Positions 40,652 to 45,719 of a stretch of 64,000 nt of DNA are shown piece by piece; the stretch's first letter is position 1, and every line of letters begins with the position of its first letter. A program made the position numbers and the translations under genes. The notes beneath the pieces were generated by a model. That model made no database searches. It saw nothing but the letters and a program-made list of their open reading frames with translations, and was not told where the DNA came from. The DNA comes from TPA_inf: Saccharomyces (taxonomy: Eukaryota), in contig BK006936.2 of assembly GCA_000146045.2 (NCBI GenBank), positions 320,001 to 384,000 on the forward strand. Reading direction: 5' to 3'.

Positions 40652-42514
40652 TTATAGAGTATTTAAAACGGTTTTCAGAAGTTTTTCAAGTTCCGCATAC
40701 GTGTAGGGTACCCAAATAATTTCCATTCCAGAATTGTTCTTAGTTATGTTGGCCATTTTATGTTCTATGAATTCTCTAAGCATCGACCTTAGAGCTATCT
40801 CATTAGAAGCAATAAAATCAGCGGCACAGAGATGGTTGAAAAGTTTAAGTTCTACTCCAGTTCTTTGAGTACCACGCTTAGGACCTGTGTTAGCGGATAG
40901 ATTCCCCATATTCTGCATTTGTGTTTCAATAAGCAACTTATACATCTTCTTGGAGTTCACAGTAAGTGATTGTAAGACGTATTTCGCACCTTCAGCACCA
41001 CTGCTGGTATCGCTTTTACCCATCTTCATCACATCTTGGAACGTAGACTCGACTGTCGACGGTTCAAAATTCGAAATATCATGAAAGACAAAGTTGTAGT
41101 TTTGGGCCTTCATGTTGTCCCAGAGGAGCGGAGCGTAAATGTGGTCTGTAGAGGCGACTATGGCGATTTGTCTGATGACGGAGAGGAAGCTTAGCATCGT
41201 CTGAAAAGTGTTTTTCCTTATGCTAGGACCATCCAGATTATGCACTACAAGTATTAATTTGATATCTAAAGGTTGATTTTTGTAGAAATCAATCATCTTT
41301 TGGATCTGCAAAATCACATGATTGCCCCAGTACTTAGTTTCGCTTCTTGTCAACTCAGCGGGGACCAAAAGATCGGTAATCTCTTTGAAGACGTCACGAT
41401 AGTTACAGCTAGGGTTGTAACCATTTAAAATAAGGCATGGGATGGAATTTACAGGTTTGTTTTGTTGTAATTCATTCTCATAAGCCAGTTGCGAGTACGC
41501 GATTTTCGGAGACAAGTAGTCAATGGCAAACTCTTCCAAAAAATTACGTTTCGAACCTACACCATAAAATAATAAGGAGAATCCTTGAGTCAATTCAAAC
41601 CAATACTGGGGAAACATTTTTTTCTGAATTTCAAATAACTTTTGCCTGGGACGTTTTTGAAAATTTTCGTTGAAAAAGTTTGATACTAGGGAAAACTCTT
41701 CTCTGGTAACGTCAGGTGCCATTGACATGGTGTGCCTTGACTTCGCATTAGTTCTGACAATTTTTCTTTGGTCGAAATATCCTTCAAAAGTATCCAAAAA
41801 CGAGCTTGCTGACTTGGTTTCCGAAGTTTGGTAGAGCTTTTTATTTTTCGGTACAGGGGTTGGAGTAAAATTTCTACTCAAGGTTAATTTACCTGGGGAG
41901 GTTGAGTCTTTATATTCTTTTAAATTATTCATTATAATTTGCTTTAGGGGCGAAGTAAAATCATGATTAGTGGTTAAAGACTTCTTAGATGGTGTTGCAG
42001 GTTCTGGTGGCTCGGGTGAATTTGATACAAAATTATCATCAGTTTGTGGAGTCACATTATCTTCATATGTTGTGGTCGCTACCTGTATTTTTTCGCGTTC
42101 TCTTTTCTCTTTTATCCCCGTCTTTTCCATCACCTGCTTGTTGTTAGAAGTCTTGCTTTCCTCATTGACATTACCTGATGTATCTTTGTCCAATTTCCTC
42201 TTTTTCTTAGAGGAAATTGTATCTTTCTCATCCTTCTTGATCCTATCAGTTAATTCTTCCTGTATCTTTCTTGGTCTTCCACGTTTACGGGGAGCTTTAC
42301 TTGGCGTTTTAGGTTTGAGTGCCGGATCTGGAGATGTATTTTTCCTTTCGTTGCCTACAAGCGAGATTCTTTCCAACAAATTCTTCTTTGATGAATGAAT
42401 TCTTCTCAGTTGTCTTTCTCCATGTGGGTCAACCCTTTTTGGGGTTACATTCCTGCTTTTTGCCGGAGACGATAGGATATCATTATGCTCTACAAAGTCT
42501 TCCCCATTTAGCAT
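40652..42514 (-). CDS. ORC2: Origin recognition complex subunit 2, 620 aa.
   Basis: The ORF was trimmed to MLNGEDFVEHNDILSSPAKSRNVTPKRVDPHGERQ…, giving 620 aa and matching YBR060C. It has a basic N-terminal region with CDK-site-like S/TP motifs. Confidence 0.85.
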   Translation of the reverse strand: MLNGEDFVEHNDILSSPAKSRNVTPKRVDPHGERQLRRIHSSKKNLLERISLVGNERKNTSPDPALKPKTPSKAPRKRGRPRKIQEELTDRIKKDEKDTISSKKKRKLDKDTSGNVNEESKTSNNKQVMEKTGIKEKREREKIQVATTTYEDNVTPQTDDNFVSNSPEPPEPATPSKKSLTTNHDFTSPLKQIIMNNLKEYKDSTSPGKLTLSRNFTPTPVPKNKKLYQTSETKSASSFLDTFEGYFDQRKIVRTNAKSRHTMSMAPDVTREEFSLVSNFFNENFQKRPRQKLFEIQKKMFPQYWFELTQGFSLLFYGVGSKRNFLEEFAIDYLSPKIAYSQLAYENELQQNKPVNSIPCLILNGYNPSCNYRDVFKEITDLLVPAELTRSETKYWGNHVILQIQKMIDFYKNQPLDIKLILVVHNLDGPSIRKNTFQTMLSFLSVIRQIAIVASTDHIYAPLLWDNMKAQNYNFVFHDISNFEPSTVESTFQDVMKMGKSDTSSGAEGAKYVLQSLTVNSKKMYKLLIETQMQNMGNLSANTGPKRGTQRTGVELKLFNHLCAADFIASNEIALRSMLREFIEHKMANITKNNSGMEIIWVPYTYAELEKLLKTVLNTL

Positions 42515-42883
42515 GTTATGGCAATTCGCAGTACTACAAAAACTTGTTTTAAAGATATAGCAAATAAGATCAATGATCAATTATCAAATACAATTTCAGC
42601 TAATATATTCTACTTTGTCTTAATTTAAAGGTGGTTCCTATTTCTTTATAACTTTTACACATTGTGAAGAATAACAATTCTGCTTACTATTGTCATTTCC
42701 ACCTCAATGATGCGGTGAGTGGGTGTTCTGAAAAATTTTCCCGATTTTGCTAGACTAGAAATTGGTACTAGCTGATCCATATCACATTTACGCGAATAAG
42801 TCGATATTTATGCATGGATATTTGGCCTTTTACGACACTTATTCTTATGATCCATTGAAAGATGGTTCATATTACATATAAAG

Positions 42884-44571
42884 GTGCCACAGCAAGTTAA
42901 TGTCACGGCAGCTAGTGACGCTATTGCTAGTTTACACCTAGATGAGGCCACTGGAGAAATGGTCTCTAAGACAGAGTTGAAGAAGCGTATTAAGGGAATA
43001 CAAATTGAGGCCAAAAAGCTGTCAAAAAGACTCTTGCGAAACCAAAACCAGCTTCGAAAAGACTAATTTCCTGGCCGGTTTATAGTCATCTCAATACTAG
43101 ATCACAGCAAATCCAATTAAGAAACAGACTCTTGATATAAATTTTTATCCATACAAGTTCCGATTATATATATTCAATCCTGAATTTTTGGCCAAGTATG
43201 CCCATTCAAAAAGGCGAAAATTTCCCTTAAGAGAAGTTTCACATTGCTAGGAGAGTTCATGCAGAAAGAGAATCAGCTTAAAAATTGAAATTCTACGTTC
43301 TCAATGGTGGTGTTGAGCTCTAAATTATTTTACAATTTCAGGATTATTACGACGAGAACCCATAAAAAGGAGCATGACCTTTAAGGAGGAGTAATATATA
43401 TCCACCAAAGAAGACCGGCGGAGATGAGATATATTTTTTTCGTTAACAGAGTGCAATTGACAACTTGTTTGCACTTGCCTGCTAACTGTTTTGGTTTCAA
43501 AGATCAAGAAAATAGATAGAACCCGTTTTATTATTCAATTGACATCGCCCGTTATATCAGACGATTTTTGGATCAAAAAAAGTTTATTGGAGCAGAAGCA
43601 ATTCTGAAATGAAGGTCCTAATATGACCCCAATATGACACATAATTCGGAATCTGCCACTTGTGAGTTTTATCAAGCCTATGCGGATGTTTGTGACTAGT
43701 TGGATATGACTGAATTAATACTTTCAGAAATGGACAAGGAGATATGTGATTCTCTATTATCAAATACCATTTGAACCTTACTGGTCCAGCTAAAAAAGAG
43801 CTAGAATTCATCTGTTCTAGCCCATGGAAGAGAACCGATATGATTGGCAGATAGAAACCATACTGATTCGCGTCGTATCTAGCACAACCCACGTAAGAAC
43901 CTTAATTGACGAACAGTCAAACCTTCTTGGCTTTTACAACCGAGAGGAAATACTAAGTCAACATCAAGGTGGCAAACACAATTCACAGTATCTAATTTTT
44001 CGTTATATCACATTGGAAAAAGTATTAACGTATAATTTCCATCTGCTGAGCACTTGCTGCCGTTGAGACCGGCGAATTTTTGAAAGAAGTGTATGCCAAT
44101 AATAAATTGGAAAGCCCATTAAATAATGCTCTTATGTTGGATAAGCTTTCTTCGGTGGAATAAAAGGCACATGTATCAACCTGACTTTCACTTTTACTTA
44201 ACCCCAAGCTATGTCTCCATTGGCCAGGTACTCAAAAGAACAACCGGGTTTATGTGAGCGTTTCGAGGTTTTTGTATCTAAAAAGGAGATATGTAATGCG
44301 TAAACCCGAACTGAACAATTCGTTTGACCAAAAGGGGCTTTCCTACAAACAAGCAGGGCAATAGGAGCAAGGCAAATGGATCAAGGTGATGCTTATGCAT
44401 AATTTATACGATGGAATCCTTTGTAATGCTCCGTACTACGGTTTACCACCAACCGGCTTTTGGGTTGTAATATTGACAGATTCACCATGTTCTCAATGGT
44501 TCTGTCACAATTCGAAAGTTCTATTACTCGCAAATTCGAAAGCAGATGTTTTAAGAGACGAGGTGAAGTAA
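42884..44571 (+). pseudogene. Decayed full-length relic of a lysyl-tRNA synthetase gene (KRS1 paralogue). It is colinear from the eukaryote-specific N-terminal extension to the class-IIb motif 3 and C-terminus. It carries a GTG in place of the start ATG, multiple stops and frameshifts, and a ~70-codon internal deletion.
   Basis: In order along the + strand, the first segment at 42884-43066 is (GTG)[44 protein letters not shown], which matches the KrsRS N-terminus [37 protein letters not shown]…. At ~43170-43320, [22 protein letters not shown]…LKIEILRSQWW corresponds to [23 protein letters not shown]…LKFYVLHGDG. At ~43330-43520, DYYDENP*K…PPKKTGGDE…PANCFGFKDQENR* corresponds to DYCDPDSYEK…QPKKGGEGE…PADHFGFKDQETRY. 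RRFLDQKKFIGAE corresponds to RRFLDQRKFIEVE. At ~43650-43740, [27 protein letters not shown] corresponds to [28 protein letters not shown]. At ~43810, SSPWKRTDMI corresponds to FSRPWKRINMI. At ~44200-44330, a frameshifted stretch is nucleotide-similar to [44 protein letters not shown]. Finally, 44386-44571 reads YGLPPTGFWVVILTDS…VLLLANSKADVLRDEVK*, which is class II motif 3 plus the C-terminus. The comparison is from memory of Krs1p and needs blastx confirmation. Confidence 0.75.
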
Positions 44572-44786
44572 AAAAGAAGAAAAATGATTGCCATACTCCT
44601 CAATGCTTGCATGTAATATAATATAATATAATTACTGTTTCATTTTCTTTTATATTATACAATGGATATTCTACATAACCGTAACCTATATCGTTTTTAA
44701 TGATTGCAAGGAAAAGTTGATTTTGTAGATAATCTTATAATGTAGTGACTTATTTAATTGTTTGATTAGAGGTAGTAATATTGCAA

Positions 44787-45719
44787 TCAAACTGATCTAG
44801 TGAGTTTCCCGCTCCTTTTTAATTCCAAAGCTTTCTTGTAGGGAGGGTTCGTCGGGCTTTGAACAGGATCTAAGGACGATGAAGTGCCTGCAACCGAAGA
44901 AGGTAGGTCATGATAAGTGGCATCTGAGTCGAAACTTTGAAGACTTCCACAAGCCATAAATTCGGCTATGTTTCTCTCCTCTTCATTCCAATGAGACAAT
45001 TTGTCTGATATACACAATTTATTCAAAAAACAGCCTTGAAAAAATTCATCAACGGATGTATTTACATCTAATTTTGGTGTCCAATTGGATGGTGGGTTAT
45101 AGCCTAAACAAACAATAAAAGCTTCCAGAGATGTACCTCTTGATGATCTTGGCTTTGCGCAAACGATTTTATCGAATAGATAGCCCAATTGGGAATATAG
45201 CATATCTATATCACGACCTCTGAAGATCTTTGCCACAAAAGTTCCACCTTTTTTCAGAATGCATGCAGTAAGTTGCAGCGCACTCATAATTAACTGTTGT
45301 TGCACGTATTCGTCAAGATCGTGTAACCCAGTAACATCAGGTGCACCATCACTACAAACAAAATCGGCCTTTTCGTTGCCAAACAGTTTTAGAATCCTCG
45401 CCAATGTTTTAGGATGAGTGATATCGGCTTGCAACGTTGTCACATGAGGTATGGGGGACATCGGTTGTAAATCGACAGAGACAATTTTCCTGTCCTCCTT
45501 ATCTGAACTGGGACTTTCATCAAACAGTTTTCTCGAGAGCACTTGTGACCATGAACCTGGTGCTGCACACAAATCTACAACTCTTTTTAAGTTTGGATCA
45601 TCCAGGAAATGAAATTGGTCATTGAGTTGAAGTAGTTTGAAAGCAGATCTAGCCCTATAGCCCTGCTCTTTTGCTTTTCTATAGTACAAATCTCTTTTAT
45701 CTTTGCTGCTCTTACCCAT
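44787..45719 (-). CDS. TRM7: tRNA 2'-O-ribose methyltransferase (FtsJ/RrmJ family), 310 aa.
   Basis: [36 protein letters not shown]… with FtsJ-like motifs and the [17 protein letters not shown]-binding motif. 310 aa, matching YBR061C. Confidence 0.9.

Follow-up and report, generated by a model that had tools for sequence, protein, structure and literature searches.

A published lysyl-tRNA synthetase gene relic beside ORC2 in Saccharomyces cerevisiae as the probable dead ohnologue of KRS1

The gene KRS1 (YDR037W) of Saccharomyces cerevisiae encodes the essential cytoplasmic lysyl-tRNA synthetase (LysRS), an enzyme of class IIb whose structure has been solved (7f6w), as have those of its human counterparts (3bju, 6chd). 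A decayed copy of this gene lies on the plus strand of chromosome II, between ORC2 and TRM7, in the 64,000-nt stretch of contig BK006936.2 analyzed here (positions 320,001 to 384,000, hereafter the window, to which the coordinates given below refer unless a locus is named). This relic is interpreted, with a probability of roughly 0.93, as a non-processed, inert pseudogene of KRS1 derived from the whole-genome duplication (WGD), that is, as the dead ohnologue of the chromosome II (ORC2-adjacent) track. The relic keeps the domain order and the N-terminal extension of KRS1, but lacks both a start codon and motif 2, while its OB fold is undetectable by Pfam, and its frame is broken throughout.

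As an object, the relic is not new. Lafontaine and Dujon (2010; BMC Genomics 11:260, PMC2876123) listed it in their Table S1 as SACE0Bp1, on the Watson strand of chromosome II at 362889-364586, with YDR037W as its best match, a relative length of 0.99, an amino-acid divergence of 0.52, and a nucleotide divergence of 0.37, and described it as a pseudogene formed after the WGD. Subtraction of the offset of 320000 places these coordinates at 42889-44586 of the window, SACE0Bp1 and the relic being the same object, and the suggestion of the initial annotation, made from the sequence alone, that the relic might lie outside the known literature does not hold. Table 7 of the same paper gives five stops, 15 frameshifts, and a relative length of 1, together with evidence of transcription in three of three data sets (tiling arrays, 3' long serial analysis of gene expression (SAGE), and RNA-seq). 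The counts differ, with 24 frameshifting indels and 11 stops being found here versus 2/2 in Table S1 and 5/15 in Table 7. Only distant species were compared in that survey (PMC2876123), which is therefore silent on the intact Saccharomyces orthologues, on gene conversion, and on the date of the death of the gene. As a finding, the relic itself matters little, given that both its existence and its WGD origin have already been stated. The results that are new here are its recent split from KRS1, the gene conversion, its placement within Saccharomyces, the date of its death, the deletion in a paradoxus-type allele, and an independent pseudogene in S. kudriavzevii.

Losses of one member of a WGD pair have been cataloged among closely related yeasts. 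Table 5 of Scannell et al. (2011; PMC3276118) lists WGD duplicates differentially lost among the five sensu stricto species (GAL80, ARL1, YML020W, HEK2, and others), and KRS1 is absent from both this table and the text of the paper. The KRS1 pair resembles those listed in having been kept in some species, with one member being lost or pseudogenized in others, including parallel, independent losses, although the surviving KRS1 copies, unlike those of most of the listed pairs, are near-identical through gene conversion. The collapse of near-identical copies in short-read assemblies is a likely reason why KRS1 is missing from the list.

A further group of comparable systems is formed by the yeast ohnologue pairs known to evolve in concert, which include the ribosomal protein genes, TEF1/TEF2, and the histones. 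The KRS1 pair has in common with these a high identity that is limited to the coding sequence, unrelated flanks, and homoeologous positions, and differs from them in that, in one lineage, one of the two genes ceased to be converted and decayed, which dates the end of the concerted phase.

The gap between ORC2 and TRM7 measures 2272 nt (between the open reading frames (ORFs) at 40652-42514 and 44787-45719), and was inspected in all frames. When the whole window was searched by tblastn with Krs1 (P0001, 591 aa), three collinear plus-strand high-scoring segment pairs (HSPs) covering residues 3-586 were recovered (E 8e-48 and 8e-21), the next best match elsewhere in the 64 kb reaching only E = 0.12. 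The relic, the HSPs, and the two neighboring genes are located as follows:

42884..44587, plus strand: whole KRS1 pseudogene (ORC2-adjacent ohnologue relic, SACE0Bp1), from the collinear tblastn HSPs, the DNA alignment, and the published coordinates
42890-43759, plus strand: tblastn HSP 1, frame +2
43756-44568, plus strand: tblastn HSP 2, frame +1
44154-44492, plus strand: tblastn HSP 3, frame +3
40652..42514, minus strand: ORC2, left neighbor, divergent from the relic (Pfam PF04084 and PF24882; 100% identical to S. cerevisiae Orc2)
44787..45719, minus strand: TRM7, right neighbor, an FtsJ-type methyltransferase (Pfam FtsJ, PF01728), and the same neighbor in all the Saccharomyces loci fetched

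The initial annotation had read this gap as holding a full-length, plus-strand LysRS relic and had predicted collinear Krs1 matches in different frames. Both statements are borne out, and all the peptides that it quoted, including the terminal DVLRDEVK with its stop, are present in the translation. A conceptual translation stitched across the interval had S. cerevisiae Krs1 as the top of 658 matches (E 4.5e-106). In the global DNA alignment, the homology extends from the initiator position (42884) to the ancestral TGA stop (44585-44587), with 75% identity over ~1520 aligned columns, and a length of 1704 nt in the relic versus 1776 nt in KRS1. The frame-repaired translation, guided by this type of alignment, is 63% identical to Krs1 and contains the class II catalytic core PF00152 (69.2 bits, with a cut-off of 25; profile positions 108-305 of 308 only). 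The OB-fold anticodon-binding domain PF01336 was not detected by Pfam in the repaired relic, and is present in Krs1 and the S. mikatae copy (44.6 bits), although the homology of this region to KRS1 is still seen by tblastn and in the DNA alignment. The hand-stitched translation of the 5' half of the relic had no Pfam match, which required the alignment-guided repair.

The pairwise alignment with KRS1 contains 29 indels, of which 24 are frameshifting, and the projection of the relic on the codon frame of KRS1 reveals 11 in-frame stops. The initial count of at least half a dozen stops and frameshifts was thus an underestimate of the damage, while the destruction of the frame stands as described. 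The principal lesions and remnants are the following:

42884..42886, plus strand: GTG replacing the initiator ATG (upstream alignment)
42884..43066, plus strand: residual open frame of 60 codons, the eukaryote-specific N-terminal extension (ORF list, translation)
43391..43392, plus strand: junction left by a 28-nt deletion in the OB-fold domain (KRS1 nt 530-557; alignment indel list)
43517..43518, plus strand: junction of a 41-nt deletion (KRS1 nt 689-729; alignment indel list)
43607..43629, plus strand: large loss of 47 + 100 nt (KRS1 nt 821-988; residues ~274-330 gone; alignments)
43851..44011, plus strand: 161-nt insertion, absent from every intact copy (indel list)
44434..44492, plus strand: class II motif 3, surviving as YYGLPPTG.LGCNIDRFTMF with its two parts in different frames (translation, tblastn)
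44569..44571, plus strand: premature TAA resulting from a 1-nt insertion, ahead of the ancestral TGA stop at 44585-44587 (DNA alignments)

The GTG start and the restriction of the open frame to 60 codons, both of which had been pointed out initially, are real (ORF 42884-43066). The GTG is found in S. cerevisiae alone, the alleles of the S. paradoxus type, S. mikatae, S. kudriavzevii, and S. uvarum all having ATG. Class II motif 2 (…EIGRQFRNEG…) falls within the lost KRS1 nt 821-988, leaving the relic without it, so that the initial annotation was right about the region deleted but not about its size, which is ~49-56 codons (147-168 nt) rather than ~70. Its description contained neither the 28- and 41-nt deletions nor the 161-nt insertion. 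This insertion has a GC content of 38.5%, like its surroundings, matches nothing else in the window and nothing in the fetched loci, has no internal repeat and no Rfam family, and may represent filler DNA from the repair of a double-strand break. Motif 3 is kept across the frameshift as GLPPTG.LGCNIDR, compared with the expected GLPPTGGWGxGIDR. At the 3' end, the TAA that had been taken for the terminus follows the DVLRDEVK peptide as described, but is premature, and the true end is the TGA downstream.

The mode of decay was assessed by counting private changes at the sites where all the intact Saccharomyces copies agree. In the relic, these changes affect 18.8%, 20.0%, and 25.7% of codon positions 1, 2, and 3, respectively, compared with 0.7%, 0.3%, and 18.0% in the S. 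cerevisiae chromosome IV KRS1, and 2.5%, 1.0%, and 24.1% in the S. mikatae copy. The relic thus presents both of the features expected of a pseudogene, that is, disabling lesions and substitutions that are equally frequent at all codon positions, whereas the functional copies do not exceed 2.5% at positions 1 and 2. The private changes are evenly distributed over the length of the gene, and the open 60-codon frame is no exception, no constraint being found there: the position 1 and 2 changes are 7/49 in the first 90-nt window of the gene and 8/55 in the second. This even spread, over both the codon positions and the gene, indicates that the relic branch is essentially all neutral. Given these evenly distributed substitutions, together with the ~30 indels, the 11 stops, the loss of the ATG and motif 2, and the 161-nt insertion, the relic is unable to encode a synthetase. 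A functional class IIb LysRS has an uninterrupted frame with an initiator codon, which the relic does not, and no present function is assigned to it here.

The origin of the relic can be read from the order of the genes. At the S. cerevisiae KRS1 locus (L001, the fetched loci being numbered with an L), the gene is flanked by ARO3 and EHD3 on one side and by ENA ATPases on the other, which identifies it as YDR037W. In the non-WGD Torulaspora globosa (L013), the order is UBP14, EHD3, a small ORF, an AKL1-like kinase, ORC2, KRS1, an ENA ATPase, TRM7, RSM10, and a RING protein (YBR062C-like), with KRS1 divergent from ORC2, in the same orientation as the relic. Genes of chromosome II (UBP14, AKL1, ORC2, TRM7, and YBR062C) are interleaved in this order with genes of chromosome IV (EHD3, KRS1, ENA, and RSM10). 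The interleaving of two regions with respect to a single non-WGD order is the classical mark of a WGD sister pair, and is found here for the window and the chromosome IV locus L001. The adjacency of ORC2 and KRS1 is also seen, from locus tags, in Zygosaccharomyces rouxii and Tetrapisispora blattae.

Among the post-WGD relatives, an orthologue is found at this position in S. mikatae (L004), S. uvarum (L008), and S. kudriavzevii (L005), in addition to the adjacent tags of T. blattae. The initial proposal of a lost KRS1 ohnologue at its syntenic position is upheld by the T. globosa gene order and the intact S. mikatae and S. uvarum genes in this slot. The location of the relic at the slot predicted for the chromosome II-track copy, and in the predicted orientation, effectively excludes a chance recent insertion, and no marks of a processed pseudogene were found (no poly-A tract, no target-site duplication, and no direct repeats flanking the relic), its position being syntenic and its promoter conserved. 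The divergence of the relic from its partner does not date to the WGD, as might be expected of an ohnologue, since the relic nests in Saccharomyces. This young divergence is attributable to gene conversion, however, and thus does not contradict a positional WGD origin.

The conversion is indicated by the two KRS1 genes of S. uvarum, one of which lies in the ORC2-TRM7 slot and the other beside EHD3:

L007:5451-7229, minus strand, and L008:8001-9776, plus strand: S. uvarum KRS1 ohnologues, both intact

The DNA of these copies is 98.99% identical over a tract that begins 3 nt upstream of the ATG and ends 4 nt short of the stop codon, with no detectable similarity between their flanks. An identity that is limited to the coding sequence, with unrelated flanks, indicates gene conversion between old paralogues rather than a recent segmental duplication. 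Given this concerted evolution, the divergence of the relic from KRS1 records how long ago the two were last homogenized, and not the age of the WGD. In a neighbor-joining tree (467 amino-acid columns, 300 bootstraps), the relic fell within the Saccharomyces clade in 297/300 replicates, grouped with the ORC2-adjacent copy of T. blattae in 0/300, and was the sister of the S. cerevisiae chromosome IV copy (Scer_IV) in 46/300 only.

The loci of the relatives were fetched through the homologues of Orc2, Ehd3, and Krs1. An intact second LysRS gene, which had been sought in the ORC2-TRM7 slot of other Saccharomyces species, is present in both S. mikatae and S. uvarum (591-592 aa). The gene in S. mikatae IFO 1815, SMKI_02G1710, encodes 592 aa and its protein is 96% identical to S. 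cerevisiae Krs1. A related observation is a contig from an ENA “synthetic metagenome” (L010:2-712, minus strand) that carries the N-terminus of an EHD3-adjacent KRS1 from an S. mikatae-like yeast, with 237 intact codons, which differs by 7% in its DNA from the S. mikatae ORC2-adjacent copy, and stops within the gene. Two other alleles of the slot have lost their function:

L005:3841-5606, minus strand: S. kudriavzevii ORC2-adjacent pseudogene (subgenome of the hybrid VIN7), with five in-frame stops and one frameshift
L002/L003:5314-6001: S. paradoxus-type allele, in S. cerevisiae YJM1252 and a Logan contig, with a TRM7-ORC2 interval of only 686 nt

The S. kudriavzevii copy is full-length, with in-frame stops at codons 33, 83, 235, 396, and 551, a 1-nt deletion, and private changes that are raised at codon positions 1 and 2 (4.9% and 4.0%). 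It has no lesion in common with the S. cerevisiae relic, which indicates that this pseudogene arose independently and is much younger. In the paradoxus-type allele of YJM1252, the ATG and ~35 codons are joined directly to the last ~10 codons, a clean internal deletion of 1.57 kb with an AAG microhomology at its junction. The N-terminal codons of this allele have replacements in common with the relic (…TAASD…) that are missing from the functional copies. The 4-fold divergence of YJM1252 from the window is 0.26 in TRM7, 0.17 in ORC2, and 0.007 in AKL1, the first two genes being paradoxus-like and AKL1 cerevisiae-like at these sites, so that, judging by sequence, the S. paradoxus introgression in this strain seems to end in or near ORC2.

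The ORC2-adjacent copy is thus a pseudogene in S. cerevisiae, the paradoxus-type allele, and S. kudriavzevii, and intact in S. mikatae and S. uvarum. The species examined offered no case of reciprocal loss, the EHD3-adjacent copy being kept wholly or partly in every one that was scorable. In the assembly of S. arboricola H-6, runs of N of 1613 nt (L006:3998-5610) and 1827 nt (L009:5386-7212) are found exactly at the two expected KRS1 positions, and the contigs of a short-read S. uvarum and of the mikatae-like yeast break inside a KRS1 copy. These gaps and breaks suggest an effect of near-identical repeats on the assembly and, in S. arboricola, the presence of two such copies.

The relic branch measures ~0.22-0.24 substitutions per site (Jukes-Cantor), as against per-lineage distances at the 4-fold sites of ORC2, AKL1, and TRM7 that amount to ~0.16 between S. 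cerevisiae and S. paradoxus (TRM7 only, because the paradoxus-type allele is mosaic) and 0.32 between S. cerevisiae and S. mikatae. A branch length between 0.16 and 0.32 points to a death in the ancestor of S. cerevisiae and S. paradoxus, in agreement with the dead alleles of both species. Function was most likely lost, then, after the split of S. mikatae and before that of S. cerevisiae and S. paradoxus. The initial image of an ohnologue caught in mid-erosion is apt insofar as this is a decayed ohnologue, but not in placing the erosion from the WGD onward, given that the death goes back only to approximately the cerevisiae-paradoxus ancestor.

The WGD left one KRS1 copy beside ORC2 and another beside EHD3, and both persisted in Saccharomyces, with their coding sequences held near-identical by gene conversion. 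The copy beside ORC2 would have ceased to be under selection in the lineage that later gave rise to S. cerevisiae and S. paradoxus. Conversion would, in this sequence of events, have maintained the pair since the WGD, with its redundancy then allowing the loss.

The region upstream of the relic contains one further conserved feature:

42711..42741, no strand assigned: conserved block TGCGGTGAGTGGGTGTTCTGAAAAATTTTCC of the divergent ORC2/KRS1 promoter (five-species alignment of the ORC2-LysRS intergenic region)

This 31-nt block varies hardly at all among S. cerevisiae, the paradoxus-type allele, S. mikatae, S. kudriavzevii, and S. uvarum, and is kept although the LysRS gene that it faces is dead in three of the five. 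It resembles a putative Rap1-like plus RRPE-like element, and may have been retained for ORC2. A promoter common to the relic and ORC2, and still conserved, would explain the reported transcription of the relic, which it could drive. The Rfam search of the interval returned no family match.

The homology itself is not in doubt, and its reading as a chance or lysine-rich low-complexity match, the alternative that the initial annotation had set against its own, can be dismissed. Nothing beyond the lysine-rich N-terminal segment speaks for it, while the similarity is collinear over residues 3-586 (E 8e-48), with 75% DNA identity over ~1500 nt and a Pfam match to the catalytic core. The branching of the relic within Saccharomyces, rather than at the WGD, and the limitation of the KRS1 homology to the coding sequence would both fit a recent small-scale or retrotransposed duplicate of the chromosome IV KRS1 that happened to insert between ORC2 and TRM7 and has decayed since. 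Such a duplicate would have had to fall exactly where T. globosa has its KRS1, between ORC2 and ENA/TRM7, and in the same orientation, with ORC2 and KRS1 also adjacent in Z. rouxii and T. blattae, and in a slot that holds intact genes in S. mikatae and S. uvarum. It would also have had to leave neither a poly-A tract nor a target-site duplication and to settle on a promoter block common to five species, while gene conversion already accounts for the young age of the sequence. This makes a recent arrival scarcely credible. It is very improbable, in turn, that the locus is still functional, whether through a short peptide from the 60-codon frame, a recoding product, or a regulatory non-coding transcript that acts on KRS1, ORC2, or TRM7. 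The transcription recorded in the tiling-array, 3' long SAGE, and RNA-seq data (PMC2876123), the conserved promoter block, and the openness of the first 60 codons are all compatible with such a role. The initiator was lost in S. cerevisiae only, however, and over the first 180 nt the changes at positions 1 and 2 are as frequent as in neutral sequence, while the 24 frameshifts and 11 stops rule out recoding, the paradoxus-type allele has simply deleted 1.57 kb, the conserved block can be explained by ORC2, and the interval has no Rfam match.

A number of observations weigh against the interpretation of the relic as an inert, WGD-derived pseudogene dead since the cerevisiae-paradoxus ancestor. 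Its reported transcription in three data sets leaves room for a non-coding role. Two short stretches of the relic are unusually well kept, one of them a 34-nt run identical to KRS1 around 43652-43695, which is compatible with chance or with a small, late conversion patch; the sites common to the relic and Scer_IV only are scattered, with no clusters that would mark such a patch. The informative sites within Saccharomyces are noisy: the four patterns that compete (the base of the relic being common to two, or none, of three functional copies) are backed by 26, 23, 17, and 11 sites, which is near a star. The dating, finally, is based on rough Jukes-Cantor corrections, and its paradoxus calibration is a single introgressed allele.

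A modest side result concerns the KRS1 pair in Saccharomyces, with its concerted evolution and its parallel loss, and provides a worked example of how a pseudogene that lies in a homoeologous position may seem young when its parent pair evolved in concert, the divergence from the paralogue dating the last conversion and not the duplication. KRS1 is also a probable omission from the lists of ohnologues differentially lost among Saccharomyces species. The broader claim, that KRS1 is an unlisted WGD pair, kept for ~100 million years by the gene conversion of its coding sequence and now being lost in parallel within one genus, in a pattern undescribed in print, is put forward only tentatively, and is somewhat more likely to fail than to hold. 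As KRS1 is essential, its copy number in each species bears on models of hybrid-spore viability.

Two minor observations concern the S. cerevisiae loci. A Logan contig (SRR5236065, L014), considered as a possible divergent S. cerevisiae lineage because its Orc2 is 96% identical, was rejected, being otherwise identical to the window. Short blocks of this contig (the equivalent of window 44565-44589, for example) are swapped for their complement, and its AKL1 is fragmented, which looks like an assembly artefact, and accounts for the apparent 96% identity. At the chromosome IV locus, the segment ARO3-EHD3-KRS1-ENA was reported by Doniger et al. (2008; PMC2515631) to be the most polymorphic region of the genome, which they credited to S. 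paradoxus introgression in most strains, and the surviving KRS1 of many S. cerevisiae strains would thus itself be derived from S. paradoxus.

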